From positions 192,001 through 256,000 of the forward strand of contig CAXRHT010000001.1 in assembly GCA_964230645.1 (NCBI GenBank): a stretch of 64,000 nt of DNA, written 5' to 3'. The DNA comes from Bdellovibrionales bacterium. GTDB lineage: Bacteria; Bdellovibrionota; Bdellovibrionia; Bdellovibrionales; JAGQZY01. The notes under the pieces are model-generated. The model had not been told where the DNA came from and made no database searches. It was given only the letters and a program-made list of their open reading frames with translations. Shown here piece by piece: positions 47,992 to 61,659 of this stretch (positions within the stretch are counted from its first letter, which is position 1; each line of letters opens with the position of its first letter). A program made the translations under genes and the position numbers.

Positions 47992-48888
47992 GTGCAAAAG
48001 GAAACTAATATAATAGACATGACACTCTTAGACTACTTTCCTGAGTCCTTTGAAAAGTTAGAGGACAGCGCCCTTAAGGACCTTATGAGTTCGGTAGAGG
48101 CCTTTAGTTACGACAAAGAAGATTTAGATGAGGACACTGACTTATCGGGAAAAATTGCGGTCGGCGATCATATTCAAACATCAGCTTTCTTAAAAAACTT
48201 TGTGGAAAATAAACTAAGCAATGTCGTACAAACTTCAAACGACGATCTCCCCTACGAGCTTTTTATTGCCAGTATCATTCTTAAAAAGCCACGACTGTTC
48301 CTCAACAACCCCTTAACCATTCTCAATTCTCAAGACTCCTCAGCAACAGCTATGAGAGTATGGCAAGAAAACTTTAACTGCACTGAGCACAAAGAACGAG
48401 TCATGGAGAGTATTCAGAAGTTTATAGGGCGCAATAAGTCCATGAACCGACTTTCCGATAATATTTTAATAGTAATTGATGAACTTTTCTCCAACGCCCT
48501 TTTTAATGCTCCGGTCGATGAAGGCGGTTACCGAATTTTCAAAAACATGCACCGCAATGAACATGTGCGCTTCCCAGGCAATAAAAATGCAAAAATCTTT
48601 GCAGTGCACACTCAGAACGATCTTTTTATAGGTGCCGTGGACCCATGGGGGTCTGTCGATAGAGATGGTATTTGTCATTCTCTCTACAAGGCTTATAATG
48701 AACGCAAGGTGGATGAAACTTCCAAAGGCGCCGGTTTCGGTCTGCGCATGATGCTCGACCGGTCCAGATCAATCTACATCCTTTGTGAAAAGGGTAAAAG
48801 GACACTGGCCTGCTGCCATATGCGTCTTAACATTAGCTTAAAAAAAGTAGAAAATGTTCCGAAACAACTCCATATTAACTGTTTTTAG
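47992..48888 (+). CDS. GHKL/HATPase_c protein (RsbW-like serine kinase / anti-sigma-like)
   Basis: DELFSNAL (N-box), VDPWGS and GAGFGL, with no His-box; alternative start ATG 48019. Confidence 0.75.
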   Translation: MQKETNIIDMTLLDYFPESFEKLEDSALKDLMSSVEAFSYDKEDLDEDTDLSGKIAVGDHIQTSAFLKNFVENKLSNVVQTSNDDLPYELFIASIILKKPRLFLNNPLTILNSQDSSATAMRVWQENFNCTEHKERVMESIQKFIGRNKSMNRLSDNILIVIDELFSNALFNAPVDEGGYRIFKNMHRNEHVRFPGNKNAKIFAVHTQNDLFIGAVDPWGSVDRDGICHSLYKAYNERKVDETSKGAGFGLRMMLDRSRSIYILCEKGKRTLACCHMRLNISLKKVENVPKQLHINCF

Positions 48889-48896
48889 GTGAGGCA

Positions 48897-49391
48897 ATGA
48901 GCGGATTTAAAGTAACAACGAAAATTGACGACAATATGAAGACCCGTATTCAAATTGATGGGGCCATGGATGAGCATTCGGATTACTCATCCATTGAGAC
49001 GAAGTTCACAGATGAAGTTGTTTTTGATTTCAACAATGTCGAACATATCAACTCGACAGGCATCAAGCATTGGGTGCATTGGGTGGCTAAGGTTTCGGAA
49101 TCTAATCCCGAGCTTAAGTTTTATTTTGTAAATTGTCCTAAACCTATAGTGGATCAAATTAATATGGTGGATGGGTTTCTTCCTCCAAAGTCCACAGTTA
49201 AATCCTTCAAGGTTCCTTATTTTTGCGAGGTCTGCGATAAAGATATGACTTGCACCTTCGTGCTAGGTCGTGAGTACAGCTTTGAAGATGGCAAGGCGGT
49301 TCTATCCATCCCCGACAACACCTGCGATCGTGGCGACTGTGAAATGGAGCCCGACGTGGTTGAACAAAAGTATTTCCGTTTTCTTAAATAA
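48897..49391 (+). CDS. STAS-like domain protein with C-terminal Cys4 zinc-ribbon-like segment
   Basis: IDGAMDE, FDFNNVEHINSTGI (STAS phosphosite-like), CPKPIVDQIN and PYFCEVC...C-x4-C. Confidence 0.75.
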   Translation: MSGFKVTTKIDDNMKTRIQIDGAMDEHSDYSSIETKFTDEVVFDFNNVEHINSTGIKHWVHWVAKVSESNPELKFYFVNCPKPIVDQINMVDGFLPPKSTVKSFKVPYFCEVCDKDMTCTFVLGREYSFEDGKAVLSIPDNTCDRGDCEMEPDVVEQKYFRFLK

Positions 49392-51581: not shown

Positions 51582-52043
51582 ATGTCAATACTAGCGCGAT
51601 ACAAAAAACCAGGTGGCTTTAAACAGCTCCTCCAGCTCATCGAGACCAGTCAACCCCTCAAACAGGAAAAGCTCCTCGAAGTTGTTGAAAAGGAGGATCC
51701 CTCTTGGGCACAAAAAATTCGAGAAAAGAAAATCAGTCCAGAAATGGTTCTTGAATGGGAACATGACCATCTATCTTTGATTTTTGAGAACATGATCTCA
51801 CAACACTGCTCTAATATTTTCAAGTCTATGGGAGAGGAAAAGATCAAAGAGTTCTCAACTCTCCTGCGGGCCGATAAATATCGAGAGCTTAAGCAGCTTG
51901 TTGACGACTCCTCAGAGCCTAGTCCATCCCAGTTAGCCGCGGCTTACAGTAATATGCTGGAAACTGTTCGCTATCTTGACGAAGAAAAAATTATTGATTT
52001 ACGCTATATCGATCCTGTCCTGGATCTAGGAGAGGCGGTTTAG
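51582..52043 (+). CDS. Stand-alone FliG C-terminal-domain-like protein
   Basis: LLEVVEKEDPSWAQKIREK...MLETVRYLDEEKII pattern; GAGGTG RBS. Confidence 0.65.
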   Translation: MSILARYKKPGGFKQLLQLIETSQPLKQEKLLEVVEKEDPSWAQKIREKKISPEMVLEWEHDHLSLIFENMISQHCSNIFKSMGEEKIKEFSTLLRADKYRELKQLVDDSSEPSPSQLAAAYSNMLETVRYLDEEKIIDLRYIDPVLDLGEAV

Positions 52044-52072: not shown

Positions 52073-52098
52073 AAAAGGGAACCTTTAGGTTCCCTTTT
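52073..52098. terminator. Bidirectional terminator hairpin
   Basis: AAAAGGGAACCT-TT-AGGTTCCCTTTT. Confidence 0.75.
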
Positions 52099-53542
52099 TA
52101 TGTTTTGGAAAGTAGCAGATAAATTCGCTACCAAGACCCGGAGCACTTTTTAAATCCACATGCCCCTCCATTTTAACCATGCAGTTTCGGACGATCGAAA
52201 GTCCTAAACCTGTTCCCTTAGCTTGTTGGTTTTGTTCGTCGCGCACTCGGTAAAAACGTTCAAAAAGTCGGCCTTGATGATAGCTTTCAATTCCCGGCCC
52301 ATTGTCTTTTACGCTCAAAAAACTATAGTTCTCCCCTTCACCCCAGCGAATTTTGATCTGTGAACCTTTTTGGGTGTATTTAATAGCATTCTCAACAAGG
52401 TTTACCAGAACATGCTCAAGGAGATCATAGTTGGCCTTGATCTTTTTTATTTCGTAACTCATATGAATGTCCGATTCATGCTCACGAATGTGTCCACTCA
52501 AGTCATGAAGCACAGCTTCGGTAATCTCCAATGTGTCTAGGTTTTCTATATGCACAGACTCGGCCGATTCAATTTTTGATAACTCTAAAAGATCTTGAAT
52601 AATATTATTGAGACGAAAAAGATTGTTCTCAACCACCTTGAAAGACTCCTCAAGGGTGGAATTGTTTTTCGCCATACTGTCTTTAATAAAACCCAAATAG
52701 CCTTGTATCGAAGTCAATGGAGTTTTTAGTTCATGGGAAGCATTGGCCACAAAGTCCATGCGGACCTTTTCTAATTTTTTGTGATCGGTGATATCGTGAA
52801 AAATAGCTACGGCTCCACGGGTGCGATTCTTTTTTTCATCCAGAAATGGAGAGATGGAAACTTGAAAGTAGTGAGTGGCCGAGTCCACCGACATATCATG
52901 CTGGGCCCCTACCCACTGACTTTTCTGTGTTCGAATACACTCGTTAAAGCCTTCAATGATTTTCTGACTGCGTAGAATTTCGTTGAGCTTCTTACCCCAA
53001 TTGCCTTCTTCTTTTTGATCAAAGAAAAGAGCCATGGGGGCGTTGTAGTAGCGAATGTTCATGTCGCGATCGACGGCCAAAATGGCATCGTTTGCGGCCG
53101 TGAGAAGGGCCTCTAACTCATTTCTTTCCTTTTCAACATCCGCTTTTTTGGTCTTAAGATCTTTCCAAATCTTATTGAGGGATAAATCGAGCTGATACCA
53201 CTCCCCTCGGCTCTCTTTAATCACTTCACTTTTTTTAATATTAAGAGAGCCCTTTTTAATCGCCCTAGCTTTTGCGATCAAAGCCCCTAGAGGCGAGAAA
53301 AAAAGTCGCACGTAAACGAGGCCAAAAATCATGGCCATGGCGAGTAAGACCCAAAACGAGTAAACTAAAACCTTATCGAGTTCAGAAAAAAAGCGGGCGA
53401 TTTCCGGCTGGCTCGCATCGAGCTTGGTTTTTAAGAAATAGCGGAAAAAAGAGCCGACCAGCAAAAATAAAAACAGAAAAAAGCCCACAAACCAGGTGTA
53501 GGCTTTTCGACTGACAATGGCGGCAGACTTAAAAATGGTCAT
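52085..53542 (-). CDS. phoR: Phosphate regulon sensor histidine kinase (TM-HAMP-PAS-HisKA-HATPase)
   Basis: DFVANASHELKTPLTSIQGY, NLVENAIKY, RLFERFYRV and GTGLGLSIV; follows phoU-phoB. Confidence 0.9.
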   Translation of the reverse strand: MTIFKSAAIVSRKAYTWFVGFFLFLFLLVGSFFRYFLKTKLDASQPEIARFFSELDKVLVYSFWVLLAMAMIFGLVYVRLFFSPLGALIAKARAIKKGSLNIKKSEVIKESRGEWYQLDLSLNKIWKDLKTKKADVEKERNELEALLTAANDAILAVDRDMNIRYYNAPMALFFDQKEEGNWGKKLNEILRSQKIIEGFNECIRTQKSQWVGAQHDMSVDSATHYFQVSISPFLDEKKNRTRGAVAIFHDITDHKKLEKVRMDFVANASHELKTPLTSIQGYLGFIKDSMAKNNSTLEESFKVVENNLFRLNNIIQDLLELSKIESAESVHIENLDTLEITEAVLHDLSGHIREHESDIHMSYEIKKIKANYDLLEHVLVNLVENAIKYTQKGSQIKIRWGEGENYSFLSVKDNGPGIESYHQGRLFERFYRVRDEQNQQAKGTGLGLSIVRNCMVKMEGHVDLKSAPGLGSEFICYFPKHKKGT

Positions 53543-54245
53543 CCCTTATTCGGTAACCGATTCCTCGCACCGTTTCAATTAAATCTGCATATTTCCCCAA
53601 TTTTTTTCTCAAACCAAAGACATGGGTATCAATGGTTCGCCCTATCACAGAGATTCCCTCGCCTTGCACTTCCTCAATCAAACGGGCTCGGGTTAAAACT
53701 CGACCGCGATACTCGAGCATCGTAGCAAGAAGCTTAAACTCCGAAGGGGTGAGGCTAAGCATTTCCCCGTCTAAGTAAGCTTTGTAAGTTTTAAGGGATA
53801 CTCTTAAAGGGCCCACCTCAATTTCATCTTGCAAATCCGGCTGACTACTTTGTACCGGGGCCACCGTGTTTCTCTGCACTCTTCTCAACAGAGAAGACAT
53901 GCGCGCTTTAAGAATGTCGGGGCTAAAAGGCTTGGTGATATAGTCATCAGCCCCAGCCTCAAGACCCTCAACAATATTATCGGGATCCGACTTGGCGGTA
54001 AGCATAAGAATGGCAATATCTTTCATGGTATCCATTTTTCGAACCAACTGAGCAATCTCAATTCCTGAGAGTCCTGGCAGCATCCAATCAAGCAACATCA
54101 CATCGTAGCTGTCTCGGTTTAATAAAGCCAAAGCCTCTTCTCCGGAGGTGACATGATCCACAGAGTAGCCCATATTCTCAACCTGCATTTTTAACAGACG
54201 TCCAATATCCATTTCATCTTCAACAATTAATACCCTAGAACTCAT
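53529..54245 (-). CDS. phoB: Phosphate regulon response regulator
   Basis: LIVEDE, LDWMLPGLSG, GLEAGADDYITKPFS, RTIDTH and ETVRGIGY. Confidence 0.9.
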   Translation of the reverse strand: MSSRVLIVEDEMDIGRLLKMQVENMGYSVDHVTSGEEALALLNRDSYDVMLLDWMLPGLSGIEIAQLVRKMDTMKDIAILMLTAKSDPDNIVEGLEAGADDYITKPFSPDILKARMSSLLRRVQRNTVAPVQSSQPDLQDEIEVGPLRVSLKTYKAYLDGEMLSLTPSEFKLLATMLEYRGRVLTRARLIEEVQGEGISVIGRTIDTHVFGLRKKLGKYADLIETVRGIGYRIRDDHF

Positions 54246-54942
54246 TGTTTCCCTCCCTTGGCCCATCAAGTTCTCGTTCTCCACTTTCGTGTCGAATGTC
54301 CTCCCCTGAAATGAGGAAGATGGCTTCTTCGGCAATGTTGGTTGCATGGTCACCGATCCTTTCTAAGTTGCGAATAATTGTGAACAGTTCTAAATTTCCA
54401 TCAATATTGGTTTGGCTCTTACGCATAGACTCGCGAATGGCTTCACTGAGGGAGTCACGGTATCCATCCACGGAGTCGTCAATTTTCAAAACTTCCCTAG
54501 CCTCCTCCTCATCGTTTTGAATGAAGGCATTGAGACCTTTTCTGACCATCAGACGAACCAGGTCGGCCATTTTAGGGATTTCGTTGGCCACAGGCAGAGG
54601 CTGACCTTTCATGTAGTCATAGATGCTATAGGTCATTGAACAGGCTAAATCCCCCATGCGTTCAAGATCCATAGCCATTTTCGTGCAAACCAACAACAAG
54701 CGCAGATCCGAGGCCACGGGAGATTGTCTAGCCAATAACTTAAAGCAGTCTCGATCTATTTTTTTATGGAATTCATTAATTTTGTCTTCCAGTTCAAAAA
54801 CTCGCTCGAGACCTGCCGTATTTTTCTTGGCAAGGGCTTTGGTTGAGATCACAATGGACTCCTCCACCAATCCCGACATTTCATTCACCGCTGATTTCAG
54901 ACGGGTGAGATATTGTTGTAAAAGAGTATCCATATTAACCAA
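54235..54942 (-). CDS. phoU: Phosphate signalling complex protein PhoU
   Basis: QSPVASDLR, DLERMGDLA, DDSVD and LERIGDHATNIAE. Confidence 0.96.
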   Translation of the reverse strand: MVNMDTLLQQYLTRLKSAVNEMSGLVEESIVISTKALAKKNTAGLERVFELEDKINEFHKKIDRDCFKLLARQSPVASDLRLLLVCTKMAMDLERMGDLACSMTYSIYDYMKGQPLPVANEIPKMADLVRLMVRKGLNAFIQNDEEEAREVLKIDDSVDGYRDSLSEAIRESMRKSQTNIDGNLELFTIIRNLERIGDHATNIAEEAIFLISGEDIRHESGERELDGPREGNNEF

Positions 54943-55696
54943 ACCTTCCGGTAATATAATCTTCCGTTCTTGTATCTTTGGGGTTCATAAAAAGGTCCGA
55001 AGTCTTTCCAACCTCAATCAACTCACCATCAAGAAGAAAGGCGGTGCGATCAGAAATACGGGCCGCCTGCTTTCTTGAGCTGGTAGTGAATATGACTGGG
55101 AACTTTTCAGAGAACTCCCGAATTAATTGTTCAATTTGTAAGGTCACTTGTAAGCCCACTCGGCTAGTCACCTCGTCCATCAACATAACTTTTGGCTTCA
55201 AACAAAGAGAGCGCGCAATACATACAAGCTGTTTTTCACCAGCGCTTAAGCGTTGTGGATAGCGATTTAAATTTTGTCTTAAATCATCCCATAAACCCAC
55301 TTGAATCAAAGCCTTTTCGACAGCCTCTCCGATATGAGCTCCTGACTCAATACGGTTCAGTCTCATGCCTAAGGCAATATTTTCAAAAATCGACAAATGA
55401 GAAAACGTGGTGGGCTCGGCAAAGATCATAGAGAAATTACGGCGAAGTTTAAGTAAATTGTAATGACTAGAGAGAAGGTTTTTACCATTAAACCAAATTT
55501 CCCCCTCGACCCGATTTCCCTGCCTCTCTTCAAAGAGACGGTTAATACACCGGAGCAGAGTGGACTTACCACTTCCCCTAGGGCCAATAATTGAAAGTAT
55601 TTTTTTATTCTCTACACCGAGATTCACTCGGTCTAAAATTTTGCGAGAATCTGACCAGGCCTCTAGATCCTTTATATCCATAATTGTTTTAGCCAT
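54935..55696 (-). CDS. pstB: PstB-like phosphate ABC ATP-binding protein with degenerate catalytic motifs
   Basis: GPRGSGKSTLLRCINR, GLWDD, QAARISD and TEDYITGRFG identify PstB; the Q-loop, signature, D-loop and H-loop are altered. Confidence 0.88.
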   Translation of the reverse strand: MAKTIMDIKDLEAWSDSRKILDRVNLGVENKKILSIIGPRGSGKSTLLRCINRLFEERQGNRVEGEIWFNGKNLLSSHYNLLKLRRNFSMIFAEPTTFSHLSIFENIALGMRLNRIESGAHIGEAVEKALIQVGLWDDLRQNLNRYPQRLSAGEKQLVCIARSLCLKPKVMLMDEVTSRVGLQVTLQIEQLIREFSEKFPVIFTTSSRKQAARISDRTAFLLDGELIEVGKTSDLFMNPKDTRTEDYITGRFG

Positions 55697-56450
55697 ACTC
55701 CACCTCGTGATAATTCATTTGGGAATCGAGCACGGCCCTAAGTAGATGAAGCAAGACAAAGACAAGAGCAAGGCTGGCTGTTTTTTGCTGATCCTTGGCG
55801 ATATGAAAGAAAAACTCAAGGGAGAGATAGTGAAAGTCCCCATCACTATCTGAAAACAAGAATAAAAATGGAGTCACTAAGGCCACCAAATAAAGAAAGG
55901 TCGAGACAAAGTGTCCCCCATAGGTTTTGTAGTAACGTCTGATAAAGAGTTGATAGGCGATCACAGCCCGACTGAGCCCCATGGCTTGCATGCCCTCAAT
56001 TTCTAGGGATCTTATTTTTTCAGAAATTTGAATCCAACGCTGACTGAGTTTAATAGCTCCAATAAAAAAGAGACTGGTAAACATTATGATTTTTTGACCA
56101 CTAAAAACGTAAAGAAAACCCACCCCAATGAGGAGAACGGGAGTTCGAACGAGCCAATTCAAAAGCCTTCGAATCCCGGGATTTGATCTCGTGTGTTTTC
56201 TTGAAATAAAAATATAAGTGGCCGCTCCACTAAATGGCGCTGCCGTCAATAAGCTAATCAAAACCAATCCCAGAGTTTCTGGCAAATAGGTCATATCCTG
56301 CAATATTTGCGATAAGGAAATATTATAAAAAATATGAAAAGCCAGAACCAACAGATAGGAAACCAGTAAAATGAAGGAGAAACTAGCCAACAAATAAAGG
56401 CTTAACATCATCGAGTGGTTGGTACGGTTACGAAATTCACGACGAGGCAT
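55689..56450 (-). CDS. pstA: Highly divergent PstA-like permease
   Basis: Six TMs; LVRTPVLLIG and an EAA-loop remnant EGMQAMGLSR; located before pstB. Confidence 0.6.
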   Translation of the reverse strand: MPRREFRNRTNHSMMLSLYLLASFSFILLVSYLLVLAFHIFYNISLSQILQDMTYLPETLGLVLISLLTAAPFSGAATYIFISRKHTRSNPGIRRLLNWLVRTPVLLIGVGFLYVFSGQKIIMFTSLFFIGAIKLSQRWIQISEKIRSLEIEGMQAMGLSRAVIAYQLFIRRYYKTYGGHFVSTFLYLVALVTPFLFLFSDSDGDFHYLSLEFFFHIAKDQQKTASLALVFVLLHLLRAVLDSQMNYHEVEYG

Positions 56451-57423
56451 AAGCTTGCCTCTCTTTTTTAATAAATTTCATCTCAACATAGGTAAAAGCC
56501 AGATAACAAACGAGCAGCACTCCTGCTATTTTCCATAAGAAAGCTTCCTCAAGGGGGCGCTTGATGGAAAAGGAAATAAAAAGTGAACTCAAACTCGCCC
56601 CCCACTGCTCGTGGTGTGGTCGATGATTGAACATAAAAAAGTGCAGGAGAGAGTAAGTGATCAAACCTTCGAAAAAACAGACTCGAGTGAAGTGAATAAG
56701 TATGGAGTTGAATCGATTTTTCATCGACTGCATCACTGTCATATGAATGCTTTCCCATGAGGTTCCGCCGAGAGACTTAATAATCTCAAAACTTTTTAAG
56801 CTCTCCTCCCCTTTCAAGGTTTTCTCCATAAAAAGAATCATTTTAGGTAAGATGTAGAGAAAAAGGCCGAGAACAACCACTACTGCCACAAGCCCGGCTT
56901 GCGCAAAATCGATCACTCTCTCTAAGGTCGATTGAAAAAAAGAATCCACGCTTAAGTCGGCATCGAAAAAAGGAAGAATCGTTAAAGGGTATAAAAGCAG
57001 AGTAATGGCAAAGGCCACCGATTGGGTCAAAAAATTAGAAGACGAAAAGAAATAGGTCCACTGATTTTGAAGAGCTAAAAAGCCCGGCTCCCCAATCACC
57101 TCTACATAGATGTAAACAAATAAAACCAGAGGCAAAGACGAGTAATATTTTAAGAACACTCGGATGGCGCGAATCAGTCGCCCCTTTTTTCTATGCTCCA
57201 TCAATGTGGCAAAAGAAAGAGCAAAGGGCCAACTAGAGAGGCTGGCTAACAATGAAACACTCAAGCCCACTGAAACCCATAGAAAGATTTTTCGAAAATC
57301 AAAAGATTCAAGATCGAGAAACAATGCCACCAAATAAAAGGCGCCCAACCCACAAAGAGCGGCAAGATAGAGGCTAATGAGTAGGAAAACGATCTTTTCC
57401 ATTCCTTTAAAAATAAGACTCAT
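56437..57423 (-). CDS. pstC: Highly divergent PstC-like permease
   Basis: Multi-TM; SSLPLVLF, YILPK and an EAA-loop remnant EIIKSLGGTSWESI; first gene of the operon. Confidence 0.6.
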   Translation of the reverse strand: MSLIFKGMEKIVFLLISLYLAALCGLGAFYLVALFLDLESFDFRKIFLWVSVGLSVSLLASLSSWPFALSFATLMEHRKKGRLIRAIRVFLKYYSSLPLVLFVYIYVEVIGEPGFLALQNQWTYFFSSSNFLTQSVAFAITLLLYPLTILPFFDADLSVDSFFQSTLERVIDFAQAGLVAVVVVLGLFLYILPKMILFMEKTLKGEESLKSFEIIKSLGGTSWESIHMTVMQSMKNRFNSILIHFTRVCFFEGLITYSLLHFFMFNHRPHHEQWGASLSSLFISFSIKRPLEEAFLWKIAGVLLVCYLAFTYVEMKFIKKERQAYASS

Positions 57424-57518
57424 ACTCTCCGATCCTTTGCACCCTTGGCATCGCTACAACTGGCAACACTCGCTCCCTTATTTTCTAAAAGGATTCCCAG
57501 GCCAAGTCCAGCTGAGCA

Positions 57519-57555
57519 TGTCAAGATTCTGTCAAGATATTCTCAGGGTTTGTCT
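57519..57555. promoter_or_regulatory. Pho-box-like 11-bp-period direct repeats between pstC and dinB
   Basis: TGTCA (57519), TGTCA (57530), TCTCA (57541) and TGTCT (57551) on the + strand. Confidence 0.65.
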
Positions 57556-57586
57556 AAGTTATTAAAAAAACGATTTTTTTATAAAC

Positions 57587-57620: not shown

Positions 57621-58703
57621 ATGGACTACGGTCATCGCAAGATTATCCACATTGATATGGATTGCTTTTACGCGGCTGTTGAGATGCGTGATCGTCCGGA
57701 TCTCAAAAATCGCCCACTAGCTGTGGGTGGTTCTCCCACAGGTCGTGGCGTACTAACCACCTGTAATTATCCAGCCAGGCGCTATGGTTTGCGCTCAGCT
57801 CTCTCCGCCAGAGAAGCCGTTAAACTCTGCCCTGATTTAGTCATCTTACCCGTTCGCATGAACAAATACCGGGAAGTCAGTCTGGAAATCTTAGAAATTA
57901 TGAAAAGCTATGCCTCTAAAATTGAAAGAGTTTCACTCGATGAGGCCTACTTGGATGTCACAGACTCCTCTCTCTTTGAGGGCAGTGCTAGTTTAATCGC
58001 AAAGAAGTTGCGTACAGACATTCGCGAAAAACTTGATCTCACGGCCTCTGCCGGAATTGCTCCCAATAAATTTTTAGCCAAAGTGGCCAGTGATTGGAAA
58101 AAGCCCGATGGGCAATACACTCTTGCTCCGGCTGATATCCCAGAATTTATAAAAACCCTTCCCGTTCAGAAAGTGCCAGGCGTGGGTCGTAGTTTTCTCG
58201 CTAAACTCTCCGAGAAAAATTTGAAAACCTGTGGAGATCTTCAGGCGATCAGCCTCAGTGATATGACTCACTATTGGGGCCAATGGGGAGCCAGACTTTT
58301 TGATCTTTGCCGAGGAGTGGATCAAAGCCCTGTGAGGTCAGAGAGAAAACGGAAGTCCATTTCCGTTGAAAGAACTTTTCGGAAAGATATTTCCACTTGG
58401 GAGGATTTGCGTCCTTGGGTAGAAAATCTTTTTGAGGAGCTTGAGTACCGAGTGAATAAAAACAACATCCAAACGGAACAACTCAAAAGCCTTGGAGTGA
58501 AAATGAAAACCCAGGACTTTGAAATTACAAGCCTTGAGAAGACTCTTCCCTTTGAGCTAGATAGCTATCTAGATCTCAGCCAAAAACATTTTTACAATCA
58601 GAATAAACCACTAAGACTTTTGGGGCTGGGTGCAAAACTCAACGAAAAAACTGAAAAGAAAAACCGCCAACAAATGAAGTTTGAACTAAGTCCAGGAGTG
58701 TGA
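57621..58703 (+). CDS. dinB: DNA polymerase IV
   Basis: IIHIDMDCFYAAVE, CNYPARRYG, SLDEAYLDV and NKFLAKVASDWKKPDG. Confidence 0.97.
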   Translation: MDYGHRKIIHIDMDCFYAAVEMRDRPDLKNRPLAVGGSPTGRGVLTTCNYPARRYGLRSALSAREAVKLCPDLVILPVRMNKYREVSLEILEIMKSYASKIERVSLDEAYLDVTDSSLFEGSASLIAKKLRTDIREKLDLTASAGIAPNKFLAKVASDWKKPDGQYTLAPADIPEFIKTLPVQKVPGVGRSFLAKLSEKNLKTCGDLQAISLSDMTHYWGQWGARLFDLCRGVDQSPVRSERKRKSISVERTFRKDISTWEDLRPWVENLFEELEYRVNKNNIQTEQLKSLGVKMKTQDFEITSLEKTLPFELDSYLDLSQKHFYNQNKPLRLLGLGAKLNEKTEKKNRQQMKFELSPGV

Positions 58704-59395
58704 GTTCTGTGATCAGTGTTGAACAAATTTTACTCAGCTTTATCCCCTTTGTCATTGGGATCAGTCTTCTCGCCTACTATTCCATCAACCTTAAAGAACT
58801 TCTCTACGCTAGTGTTCGCATGGTTTTACAACTTGTGGGAATTGGCTATGTACTCACCTACCTCTTTGCAAAAGATCATTTTCTTTGGACCTCCCTTTTA
58901 CTAACTATTATGATTGTTGTCTCGTCATGGGTTTCTCTAAGAGTGGTAAAAAAAGAGCGTTTAAAACTTTTGAAATATTCTTTTCTAGCTCTTCTTTTTG
59001 GATCCACCCCTGTGCTCTTCTGGACCACAGGGCTTGTGATTCCGGGTGAGAGCATTTGGGACCCTCGTTTTGTGATCCCACTGGCCGGCATGGTTTACGC
59101 CAATTCGATGAACACACTAAGTCTTGCTGCTGAAAGGCTCCTTAATGAATTAAAAATCCACCCCTGGCCGATGGCACAAAGTTTAGCTCTAAAAGCTGCC
59201 TTTATCCCTCACATTAACACCTTTCTTGTCGTGGGTTTGGTTTCACTACCCGGAATGATGACCGGGCAAATTCTCTCCGGCGTCGACCCATTGATCGCCG
59301 TTCGTTATCAAATTGTGATTATGACGATGATCTTTTCGTCCAGTGCGCTGAGCAGTTTACTTTTTGTTAAATTATTAGGGTCAAACCTGGATTAG
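58700..59395 (+). CDS. fetB: UPF0014 / FetB-YbbM ABC permease
   Basis: RMVLQL..IGYVL, IPLAGMVYANSM and GLVSLPGMMTGQILSG.DP..AVRYQI. Confidence 0.88.
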   Translation: MSSVISVEQILLSFIPFVIGISLLAYYSINLKELLYASVRMVLQLVGIGYVLTYLFAKDHFLWTSLLLTIMIVVSSWVSLRVVKKERLKLLKYSFLALLFGSTPVLFWTTGLVIPGESIWDPRFVIPLAGMVYANSMNTLSLAAERLLNELKIHPWPMAQSLALKAAFIPHINTFLVVGLVSLPGMMTGQILSGVDPLIAVRYQIVIMTMIFSSSALSSLLFVKLLGSNLD

Positions 59396-59396
59396 A

Positions 59397-59516
59397 GTGA
59401 TCCCGAGAAATGTTCATAGTCATCCTGAGATTTATTCATAGTCATCCTGAGACTTGTTCATTGTCATCCTGAGCGAAGCGAAGGATCTTAGGTCTTTCGC
59501 TTCGCTCAAGACGACA
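59397..59516. repeat. REP-like palindrome preceded by 22-bp-period tandem copies of its left end
   Basis: TGTCATCCTGAGCGAAGCGAAGGATCT (59462-59488) is inverted at 59490-59516. GTCATCCTGAG recurs at 59419, 59441 and 59463, with a degenerate copy at 59397. Confidence 0.88.
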
Positions 59517-59558
59517 TGCTCTCATCCAAGAAGACAGGCTTTCATCCGATATGACTTG

Positions 59559-60284
59559 CTACTTCAAGCAGTCGCGATACTGCCTCACCGTATTTTTCCA
59601 CCCCTCATTAAGAGCGTCACAGACCAAGGCGTGACCAATGGAAACTTCGGCGAGTTCGTCAATATGGTCATTGAAGAACTTTAAATTGTGGAGGTTTAAG
59701 TCATGACCAGCATTGACCTTCATTCCCATGGAATCGGCGAGCTTGGCGCACTTCTGATAGGCTTTGATTTCCTCTTCCTGCTGCCCCACCTTGAAAGCCT
59801 CAGCATAAGACTCGGTGTAAAGTTCCACGCGATCCACACCAAGATCTCGAAAAGCCAGAAGTTCTTTCATTTGAATTTCATTAGGATCCACAAAAAGAGA
59901 GACGCGGATATTTTTATTTTTCAATGTCGAGATCGCTTTTTTAAGGAGCTCCTCATTGCCTTCAAGCCTCCAACCCGCATTGGAAGTGAGCACCTCAGGT
60001 GGATCGGGTACGAGAGTGCACTGGTCCGGCTTTATTTGACCCACCTTCTCTAGAAAATGGCTCTCCGGAAAGCCCTCAACGTTGAGTTCCACTGAAATAT
60101 TTTCTTTAAGTTCTACCACATCGGGCCAGCGGATGTGGCGACCATCAGGCCTTGGATGAACGGTAATCCCCTGAGCGCCGAATTCGATAATCTTTAAAGA
60201 TTCACTGAGTACATTGGGTAGATCTTTACCTCGCGCATTGCGAAGGGTGGCTACCTTATTCACATTCACACTCAGTCGGGTCAT
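59559..60284 (-). CDS. pdxJ: Pyridoxine 5'-phosphate synthase
   Basis: LSVNVNKVATLRNAR, GITVHPRPD.RHI, VELYTE, NAGHDL and EVSIGH. Confidence 0.97.
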   Translation of the reverse strand: MTRLSVNVNKVATLRNARGKDLPNVLSESLKIIEFGAQGITVHPRPDGRHIRWPDVVELKENISVELNVEGFPESHFLEKVGQIKPDQCTLVPDPPEVLTSNAGWRLEGNEELLKKAISTLKNKNIRVSLFVDPNEIQMKELLAFRDLGVDRVELYTESYAEAFKVGQQEEEIKAYQKCAKLADSMGMKVNAGHDLNLHNLKFFNDHIDELAEVSIGHALVCDALNEGWKNTVRQYRDCLK

Positions 60285-60408
60285 GAGGCTCTTTATAGCG
60301 GAAAAATGGAGGAATACAAAGAAAAATCCTACGCCTCCACGGGGTCCTTGCGGTGGACTCTTGGCCCATTTAAGGATAAGCTCAGGCTTTCTAATGGGAG
60401 GAAGAAAT

Positions 60409-61659
60409 ATGAAGTTGCAACCCGTGCGAGGAACGCGAGACATTTACGGCGAAGAAGCTCTTCTTTTTAGAGAAATCGAGAGCCAGTTTTCCCGCACAGC
60501 AAAAATCTTTGATTTTCACGAGATTCAAACCCCCATTTTTGAATTCACTCAAGTTTTTAAAAGATCTCTTGGTGACGAAACCGATATTGTTAATAAAGAA
60601 ATGTACACTTTCGAAGATCGCAGTGGTGATTCTCTTACACTGAGACCTGAAGGCACAGCCAGTGTTGTGCGCTCAGTTCTTTCCGAAAGTCTGCTTAGAG
60701 ATTTACCTTTGAAGCTTTTTTACTCAGGTCCGATGTTCCGTCACGAAAGACCACAAAAAGGGCGGTACCGACAATTCACTCAGTTTGGAGTAGAAATGAT
60801 TGGTGTCGGCGATCCGGTGGGTGACATCGAAATTCTTTCTTTTGCTTGGAACTTTTTTAAAGGCTGCCAGCTTGATAAAAAAGTCGAACTTGAAATCAAC
60901 ACCATCGGTGATCTTGAAAGCCGTAAAAAATATCTAGATAAGTTGACCACCTTCTTAGAGTCCTACAAAAAAGATCTATCAGAGGATTCGCAAAGACGCC
61001 TTAAAAGCAATCCCCTTCGAATCTTAGATTCCAAGGACGAAAATGATAAAAAGATCGTCAGTGAGGCCCCTAGCCTTTCAGATTCACTTAATGACGAGTC
61101 GAAAAGTTTTTTCGACCAGGTACTCTCTGGTCTTGAGAAGTTGGGGCTTTCCTATAAACTCAATCCCCTTCTTGTGCGTGGTTTAGATTATTATAACCAC
61201 AGTGTTTTTGAATTCACCACAACCCATCTAGGCTCACAGAATGCCGTACTTTCTGGTGGCCGTTACAATAATCTTATTGAAACCATGGGAGGTCCCAGTA
61301 CACCGGGTGTAGGTTGGGCTGCGGGGACCGATAGAATTGCCTTACTTTTAGAAAAACCCAAAAACCCTCACAAAACATTGGCTCTTATTGCTGCCACAGA
61401 GAAAGGTAGCGAGCATCGTTTTAAACTCCTCAACGAGCTGCGAGAGGCGGAAATTCCAAGCCAAATCATTTACTCCGGTAACATTTCAAAACAAATGAAA
61501 AAGGCGAACAAACGTAACTGTTCCCACGCTCTCATAATCGGCGACGAAGAGATTGAAAAGGAAACCTATGAGCTTAAGAATTTAAAGGATGGTTCCCAGG
61601 AGAGTTTTCCAAAGGAGAAACTTTTTGATTTTCTAAAAAAACAAGACTGGGGCCTTTAA
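60409..61659 (+). CDS. hisS: Histidine--tRNA ligase
   Basis: VRGTRD, LRPEGTA, FRHERPQKGRYRQF, VRGLDYY and GGRY; start after GGAGG. Confidence 0.97.
   Translation: MKLQPVRGTRDIYGEEALLFREIESQFSRTAKIFDFHEIQTPIFEFTQVFKRSLGDETDIVNKEMYTFEDRSGDSLTLRPEGTASVVRSVLSESLLRDLPLKLFYSGPMFRHERPQKGRYRQFTQFGVEMIGVGDPVGDIEILSFAWNFFKGCQLDKKVELEINTIGDLESRKKYLDKLTTFLESYKKDLSEDSQRRLKSNPLRILDSKDENDKKIVSEAPSLSDSLNDESKSFFDQVLSGLEKLGLSYKLNPLLVRGLDYYNHSVFEFTTTHLGSQNAVLSGGRYNNLIETMGGPSTPGVGWAAGTDRIALLLEKPKNPHKTLALIAATEKGSEHRFKLLNELREAEIPSQIIYSGNISKQMKKANKRNCSHALIIGDEEIEKETYELKNLKDGSQESFPKEKLFDFLKKQDWGL

Follow-up and report, generated by a model that had tools for sequence, protein, structure and literature searches.

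The DNA considered here is a 64,000-nucleotide window (positions 192,001 to 256,000 of contig CAXRHT010000001.1) from a Bdellovibrionales bacterium whose 3.78-Mb genome, referred to below as G000, comprises 3 contigs and is 99.6% complete. Between positions 57423 and 52085, on the minus strand, the window holds six open, tightly joined reading frames in the order pstC-pstA-pstB-phoU-phoB-phoR. Comparative evidence suggests that the products of the three pst genes very probably form a degenerate, non-transporting Pst complex that signals within the Pho regulon. Four of the junctions are overlaps of 8–14 nt, and the phoU ATG lies 1 nt past the pstB stop; the frames are thus intact, as a first-pass annotation made from the sequence had stated, with this one exception to the overlap it described throughout.

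The signaling half of the operon is conventional in architecture. PhoU (54235–54933, 232 aa, with an ATG start in place of the TTG at 54942 chosen by the open reading frame tool) is a canonical two-repeat protein that exceeds the TIGR02135 cut-off (187.7 versus 130 bits), matches PhoU structures in the PDB, and is the only PhoU in G000. The PhoB-type response regulator (53529–54242, 237 aa, ATG start) has receiver and Trans_reg_C domains, and its best NCBIfam model is the PhoB model TIGR02154 (214.6 bits, cut-off 296). The PhoR-type kinase (52085–53542, 485 aa) consists of two membrane helices separated by a loop of ~20 aa, followed by PAS, HisKA and HATPase_c domains, with intact H-box and ATP-binding motifs and without a periplasmic sensor domain; its best family models are PnpS and PhoR. 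All three proteins had earlier been described as canonical in look; PhoB and PhoR both fall below the cut-offs of their proteobacterial models.

Degeneracy is most readily seen in PstB (54935–55696, 253 aa). When aligned pairwise with E. coli PstB (9k3x_C), the protein reads GPRGSGKST at Walker A, MIFA at the Q-loop, LSAGE at the signature, LMDE at Walker B, SRVG at the D-loop and TTSS at the switch histidine, followed by the C-terminal QAARISD and TEDYITGRFG, so that every motif reading in the first-pass annotation, kept or lost, was correct. Of the seven motifs of the nucleotide-binding domain (A-loop, Walker A, Q-loop, LSGGQ, Walker B, D-loop and H-loop; roles as given in PMC3971661), Walker A and Walker B alone are kept. 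The list of losses proved longer than first noted, since the A-loop aromatic and both membrane phosphate-site arginines had been overlooked, as had a Pho-box-like repeat upstream of pstC (57519–57537). The best family model is TIGR00972, where the score of 265 bits misses the ortholog cut-off of 343; PstB ancestry is clear from the highly conserved C-terminus, the gene context and the PDB match.

The same pattern extends to a set of 49 homologues recovered by protein search, which was compared with 17 canonical relatives. The Walker A lysine (K44), the Walker B aspartate (D174) and the column of E. coli Q160 are kept in all 49 and the catalytic glutamate (E175) in 48. In contrast, the Q-loop glutamine is left in one, the A-loop aromatic in one and the D-loop aspartate in nine, and neither the second glycine of the signature (a column now occupied by V, L, P, R, F and others) nor the switch histidine survives in any. 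In a homodimer, histidine, Q-loop glutamine and signature are thereby missing from both nucleotide sites. A new SSRK motif (positions 206–209) is near-invariant, with R208 in 48 and K209 in 49 of the homologues; position 40 is basic in 35, and 40 are exactly 253 aa long. The loss is not a product of chance, because Q-loop glutamine, SGGQ, D-loop aspartate and histidine are present in 17/17 canonical relatives (the A-loop aromatic in 16/17), whereas none of the 13 genomes of the genus retains the glutamine, the signature glycine or the histidine.

The permease subunits have diverged further still. PstC (56437–57423, 328 aa) and PstA (55689–56450, 253 aa) matched no relevant Pfam or NCBIfam model, and sequence-profile searches against the PDB were not significant (E 0.2–2.7), in keeping with their earlier description as barely recognizable. 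Their type I ATP-binding cassette (ABC) permease fold emerged from structure comparison. AlphaFold models with pLDDT (predicted local distance difference test) scores of 78 for PstC and 81 for PstA gave, as top Foldseek matches, E. coli PstC (9k3x_B, E 2e-4) and E. coli PstA (9k3s_A, E 4e-4), respectively, and hhalign against the canonical PstC and PstA of a relative gave probabilities of 93% and 90%. The EAA coupling loops survive in both proteins, the first periplasmic loops are shortened, and PstC carries a new invariant FFE motif. With columns assigned by register from the EAA loop, and eight canonical rows for comparison, the PstC Arg237 column holds I, V or L in 12 and K in one of 13 sequences and the Glu241 column (E252 in G000) is kept in 13/13; in PstA, arginine occurs at the Arg220 column in 1/14 and glutamate at the Glu224 column in 0/14. 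All four phosphate-site residues are present in 8/8 canonical rows. In E. coli, these arginines are reported to bind inorganic phosphate (Pi) and to be needed for import, and the first periplasmic loops to contact PstS (PMC12976172).

No PstS was found in G000, either by TIGR02136 or by tblastn and hidden Markov model searches built from the PstS of five relatives, which agrees with the first-pass annotation. The single PF12849 match in G000 was set aside as a LysR-type regulator, as judged by its sequence; this model gave no strong and one weak match in the 12 other genomes of the genus, versus strong matches in 9/13 other genomes of the family. No binding-protein gene lies beside the operon at any of the 13 loci, and a PhnD-type binder as a substitute for PstS was likewise rejected, there being none in G000 and weak matches in 2/13 genomes. 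A second canonical Pst can also be dismissed: the degenerate PstB is the sole PstB-like gene in G000 (the next TIGR00972 match scores 166 bits), and canonical PstC and PstA profiles matched nothing else.

Phosphate uptake is probably served by secondary importers, with no more and no fewer than one per genome in all 13: NptA in eight and a PiT-like permease in five. The NptA of G000 is a 380-aa Na+/Pi cotransporter of the short type without a PhoU domain, above the cut-offs of PF02690 and NF037997 and below that of TIGR01013. No PiT/PHO4 protein was detected in G000 or in the 12 other genomes of the genus. The PiT-like permease (314 aa) is present in precisely the five genomes that lack NptA, which form one subclade (97/90), and its family (L114:289-1233 in G012; L202–L205) is a candidate uncharacterized phosphate importer. 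As for the surroundings of nptA in G000, a ~27-nt repeat, present in tandem about four times (L134:4540-4645), separates it from the next gene, and the genes that follow (L134:4887-7134, contig C2) encode a 474-aa secreted protein without a family match and a DUF3450 protein; the same neighbor follows nptA in G009. We presume that these downstream genes could be part of a TonB-type uptake cluster.

An 11-bp direct repeat occurs 5′ of pstC in 11/13 genomes (G000 and 10/12 relatives), a count that is not independent, as the repeat pattern was written after the sequences had been viewed. In the window, this Pho-box-like array (57519–57559, minus strand) consists of two strong half-sites (57519–57537) and two weaker ones upstream, and is presumably bound by PhoB. 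A score matrix was built from the pstC sites of six distinct relatives and applied to independent promoters, with 1505 upstream regions of G000 as the background; among these regions the pstC box of G000 itself scores highest. Before canonical pstS the matrix scores 13.5–23.3 in 9/9 genomes of the family, compared with 16.0 for the second-best and 13.1 for the seventh background region, which makes the repeat the likely Pho box of the family. The box also precedes nptA in 8/8 genomes (top 0.5% of background in seven, top 4% in the eighth) and the PiT-like gene in 5/5 (~37 nt upstream; top 0.1–4%). A search with the pattern gave no genome-wide excess over a reversed control at two mismatches, so that exact and one-mismatch matches, together with the ranking of upstream regions, are the informative results. 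It is therefore likely that phosphate uptake remains the task of the regulon.

Other sites were noted. In G000, a three-repeat Pho-like box upstream of an MgtC-family gene (G000:C2:1639631; L133:3740-4537) ranks second among the 1505 upstream regions; as a conserved member of the regulon, mgtC was rejected, given that the box is clear in G000 alone and weak in one or two (including G004) of 11 genomes. A very strong match (G000:C2:19942; L132:4178-10510) lies ~210 nt 5′ of a small open reading frame and a CzcCBA-like efflux operon with a cation-diffusion facilitator. Directly after the pstC box, a weak −35/−10-like pair with 17-nt spacing (57482–57510, minus strand) is absent from the promoter-scan list; on visual inspection, several relatives have a similar pair, as does the region upstream of pstS in G014.

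The degenerate operon is a stable trait of the genus. The 12 other genomes encode the same type of PstB, 60–87% identical and in the same gene order, and within the order, TIGR00972 passes its cut-off in 315/384 genomes, with all 13 genus members below it. Among the other sub-threshold or second matches in the order, five were opened as possible further cases and rejected: amino-acid ABC ATPases accounted for three, another was a canonical PstB interrupted by Ns, and the last was a divergent ATPase with all motifs. A divergent PstCAB-like set in G048 (contig C29, L127; 282 bits) has all motifs intact and lies beside what appears by eye to be an arsenite-methyltransferase-like gene.

Codon models across the 13 genomes yielded ratios of nonsynonymous to synonymous substitution (omega) of 0.032 for pstB, 0.051 for pstC, 0.095 for pstA, 0.028 for phoU, 0.035 for phoB and 0.023 for phoR; the least saturated pair gave 0.06, 0.17, 0.19, 0.11, 0.13 and 0.23, respectively. 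Overall mean identity is nearly equal in degenerate (0.67) and canonical (0.65) PstB, but its distribution differs. Degenerate proteins are less conserved at the Q-loop (0.68 versus 0.95) and signature (0.54 versus 0.82), with the D-loop also relaxed, and more conserved in the Walker A region (0.84 versus 0.74) and over the C-terminal 40 residues (0.87 versus 0.65–0.71). Constraint on PstB thus appears to have shifted, not vanished, and together with the low omega values this pattern refutes decay. The substitutions are shared by 13/13 genomes under purifying selection, and G000 has no second canonical Pst; both results support the original suggestion that a transport-dead complex has been retained as a sensor or scaffold.

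In a PstB tree, the 13 genus members form one clade (100/100) on a long branch that groups with no canonical set. The sister genus g3 (G014, G018 and G021) has pdxJ-pstCAB-phoU-phoB-phoR with intact motifs and a boxed pstS elsewhere in the genome, and shares with the degenerate genus an insertion of ~40 aa in PstC and features of PhoU. The g3 arrangement is likely close to the ancestral state, and we infer descent from such a state through loss of the detached pstS.

Comparable PstB proteins recur elsewhere. A profile of the family was searched against 1.84 billion cluster representatives, and among the best 150 matches 88 keep six catalytic motifs, 44 lack at least two, and 29 lack at least three (two of the 29 belonging to this family); such a query favors degenerate proteins, so that these counts are not frequencies, and some of the proteins may be pseudogene products. 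Those lacking at least three motifs mostly keep QAARIS and the C-terminal motif. In a quick and poorly resolved tree, the degenerate representatives are scattered, some beside canonical proteins at a support of 97. For instance, P0087 has 16 relatives (51–78% identity, one named Saprospiraceae) in which glutamine, signature, D-loop and histidine are lost and the Walker B glutamate has become lysine, and the losses are much alike in the four close relatives of P0147. Four of six metagenome loci opened for the P0087 family contained true members. Three of these, from two organisms, consist of one degenerate permease, a pseudo-PstB and phoU, with no pstS within 8–15 kb (the genomes beyond these stretches were not searched for pstS), and at the fourth, pseudo-PstB is followed by phoU. 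Two of the loci (L221:6238-8455 and L223:2446-4745) represent an independent pseudo-Pst in a Bacteroidota-like lineage, with a single degenerate permease, PstB and phoU and no adjacent pstS, phoB or phoR. The PstB-specific residues that this genus shares with 75% or more of 26 further degenerate proteins are N52, R53, W136, L143, C159, E189, Q210, R213, S215, E228, T232, F236, T244, G250 and R251, specificity being defined against an outgroup of only eight non-Pst ATPases; these residues are candidates for the surface that contacts PhoU.

Because PstS is lost along with most of the hydrolysis and phosphate-site residues, the complex likely cannot pump. The explanation preferred here is that a former PstSCAB has been kept, without PstS, as a membrane-anchored sensor. 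The degenerate subunits would still assemble (as PstC′A′B′2) and would rest in an inward-facing, open-type state, as bulky residues in place of the signature glycine should hinder formation of the ATP sandwich. PhoU would dock on the conserved C-terminal base of PstB′. In known systems, PhoU binds PstB as well as PhoR's PAS domain, PhoR stays on when Pst or PhoU is lost (PMC5775613, PMC13577022), and a published model places PhoU at the base of PstB (PMC13577022). In the absence of PstS and of a transport cycle, the input presumably comes from inside the cell; in Salmonella, PhoR is reported to follow an intracellular signal (PMC10055408). A cytoplasmic ligand, most likely Pi and otherwise a nucleotide, would bind at the P-loop, Walker B and the new SSRK motif and turn repression on, with the ligand state of PstB′ setting the balance of PhoR kinase and phosphatase activities through PhoU. 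Loss of the adenine-stacking column and retention of the phosphate-binding loop point to Pi as this ligand. Nucleotide binding without hydrolysis, as first proposed, would fit the invariant P-loop and Walker B, but the A-loop aromatic that stacks adenine is missing from 48/49 homologues. When cytoplasmic phosphorus falls, phosphorylated PhoB would activate its own operon together with the secondary importer (NptA in G000, the PiT-like permease in five relatives), which would carry out uptake, and the Pst remnant would persist because PhoR needs it for switch-off. Signaling apart from transport has precedent in E. coli, where R220Q, R237Q and E240Q mutants signal without transporting (as cited in PMC5775613). 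A plasmid-borne E. coli PstB Q160K keeps output low even after Pi runs out (PMC5775613); a merely locked complex would likewise leave the regulon off, which argues that a switch is needed. That PstB′ itself reads a cytoplasmic phosphate-status ligand and relays it to PhoU-PhoR is, in our estimate, evenly balanced between true and false.

The closest competitor to active sensing by PstB′ is a passive scaffold, in which the dead complex is a docking platform fixed in the open state that keeps PhoU close to PhoR, and cytoplasmic Pi is sensed by PhoU or by the kinase's PAS domain. This proposal accounts equally well for the non-transporting, Pho-signaling core and fits the canonical PhoU, and the PstB-specific residues listed above, other than L143 and C159, are shared by all degenerate lineages and would suit a docking surface. 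It also draws on M. smegmatis, where purified PhoU is reported to modulate SenX3 in a Pi-dependent manner without Pst (PMC12301784), a result that favors the scaffold over the active sensor. It leaves unexplained the invariant Walker A lysine, the Walker B acids and the newly fixed R208-K209, and it would not predict the low output without Pi of the E. coli Q160K protein, although that protein was plasmid-borne and from another species (PMC5775613). A scaffold is a tentative alternative, ranked behind the active sensor. A different regulatory possibility is rewiring, such that the system now answers to some signal other than phosphate and governs another regulon, as the first-pass annotation had allowed. 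The invariant SSRK and FFE motifs and the strong boxes of G000 before the MgtC-family gene and the CzcCBA-like efflux operon could be read in this way, but the operon box is that of the relatives' canonical pstS and precedes phosphate importers in 13/13 genomes, which speaks against a non-phosphate cue, and the mgtC box is clear in G000 only and weak in G004 among 11 genomes. Rewiring is accordingly improbable, and the suggestion of a repurposed regulon found no support.

Some transport might also persist, in the form of slow movement of phosphate or another solute without PstS by a leak, a facilitator or an importer of altered specificity. The permease folds and coupling loops are kept, as are the catalytic glutamate, PstC E252 and nearby arginine or lysine residues, and E. 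coli PstCAB is reported to hydrolyze ATP in the absence of PstS (PMC12976172). Set against this are the two nucleotide sites without histidine, Q-loop glutamine or signature glycine, the low identity of PstA within the genus (20–51%), the lack of binding-protein genes already described, and the boxed secondary importer in every genome; residual transport therefore seems about as improbable as rewiring. Early pseudogenization after loss of pstS would explain the missing catalytic motifs, the strong divergence of PstA and a fragmented pstC at one locus (L047), yet pstC, pstA and pstB remain open in 13/13 genomes despite near-saturated synonymous sites, omega is 0.03–0.10, and the length of PstB is nearly fixed. 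We regard decay as almost certainly wrong.

Several observations weigh against the preferred explanation. The evidence for it is all comparative. PstB retains its catalytic glutamate, adenine stacking might still be provided by W14 (37/49), next to the missing A-loop position, and conservation of the P-loop could be structural instead of ligand-related. PstC keeps E252 in 13/13 sequences with an arginine or lysine one residue off register in 11/13, such that half a phosphate site may remain in the membrane, and the shifted arginine leaves some doubt about loss of the membrane Pi site. With regard to regulation, the box is missing upstream of pstC in G001 and G012, where the genes read on from pdxJ, and the PiT-like permease has no Pfam match, its role resting on the automatic name of its clusters (phosphate/sulfate permease, at 0.98 in the Atlas). 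In Caulobacter, moreover, the Pst-PhoR pathway is described as blind to cytoplasmic Pi (PMC11208175). Synonymous divergence is saturated in many pairs, and phoR in two frames in G001 (L115:8172-9466) and pstC in three pieces at L047 (292-1112, a locus matching the genus) could reflect assembly errors or real decay. Finally, all 13 genomes belong to a single clade, and the five carrying the PiT-like permease to a single subclade, so that a single loss and a single swap are represented instead of 13 separate events.

The remaining features of the region are of local interest. At the end of the operon, a hairpin flanked by A and T runs (52073–52098, listed on the plus strand) lies where phoR converges with a FliG-C-like gene and is predicted by sequence scan to be a possible bidirectional terminator. 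The convergent gene (51582–52043, plus strand) encodes a stand-alone 153-aa protein with weak similarity to the FliG C-terminal and MgtE-N domains, and is convergent with phoR at most loci of the genus. Further along (47992–49391, plus strand) are two genes without Pfam matches, encoding 298-aa and 164-aa proteins that resemble, by eye, a pair comprising an anti-sigma kinase and a STAS-type antagonist, and that occur near the locus in relatives too. On the other side, dinB (Pol IV) and a UPF0014 gene (57621–60443) separate pdxJ from pstC; pdxJ and pstC are adjacent in basal members of the genus and in the sister genus, and dinB is split in G008.

The wider meaning lies in the disputed input of PhoR, for which transport cycling, outside Pi and inside Pi have all been proposed, with differing answers reported for E. 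coli, Salmonella, Caulobacter and M. smegmatis. A natural complex without a binding protein or a working motor, and with a regulon still aimed at phosphate importers, separates sensing from transport, and residues kept in such lineages name targets for mutation in canonical PstB. A bolder and doubtful conjecture is that bacteria of several phyla have, time and again, converted the Pst pump to a receptor devoted to cytoplasmic phosphate, in which the P-loop of a pseudo-ATPase PstB reads free Pi, not ATP, and passes the signal to PhoU-PhoR. If true, this would be an unrecognized class of ABC-derived sensor, and the kept residues would show where the canonical complex has its signaling surface and its long-sought site for intracellular Pi. 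On the practical side, proteins of the degenerate type are annotated as "phosphate transport system ATP-binding protein", and consequently metagenomic counts of pstB as a marker of high-affinity uptake include likely non-transporters. A literature search, covering few subscription papers and no supplements, turned up no report of a natural degenerate Pst, and the words "degenerate" and "Bdellovibrio" are absent from the main text of a 926-genome survey (PMC13170248).

Among known systems, the nearest is the PstSCAB-PhoU-PhoR-PhoB system of E. coli and Salmonella (PDB 9k3s, 9k3x and 9k3y), which has orthologous PstC, PstA, PstB, PhoU, PhoB and PhoR, the same permease folds and coupling loops, a PhoR with a PAS domain and no periplasmic sensor, and an 11-bp repeat box on the operon. 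The Bdellovibrionales system differs in having no PstS, in the loss of A-loop, Q-loop, signature, D-loop, histidine and the Arg220 and Arg237 columns, and in uptake predicted to occur via NptA or a PiT-like permease. The transport-dead mutants of E. coli (pstB Q160K and E179Q, PMC5775613; pstA R220Q and pstC R237Q/E240Q, cited there) also signal apart from transport. However, they are engineered single changes with PstS present and, as described for the pstB mutants, with fixed outputs, whereas here the Q160 and E179 columns are kept and the losses fall on the other motifs, in a naturally occurring state that a whole genus conserves. The sister genus g3 shares the gene order after pdxJ, a pstS located elsewhere, the PstC insertion, the PhoU features and the box, and differs by its intact motifs and boxed pstS. 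As in the S. aureus PitR/NptA-PhoU-domain regulators (PMC13170248) and M. smegmatis PhoU-SenX3 (PMC12301784), a PhoR-type kinase would be governed by a PhoU-like protein independently of Pst transport, with NptA under Pho control; as reported, those systems use working importers or free PhoU, whereas here NptA lacks a PhoU domain and the Pst that is kept is dead. E. faecalis PstB1/PstB2 (PMC12096839) offer a further parallel of PstB in an accessory role, although both are reported to keep their motifs. Judged by its sequence features, the system is best described as functional kin of the Pst-PhoU-PhoR signaling complex, and as standing outside the working PstSCAB importers, from which it is set apart by four defining features.

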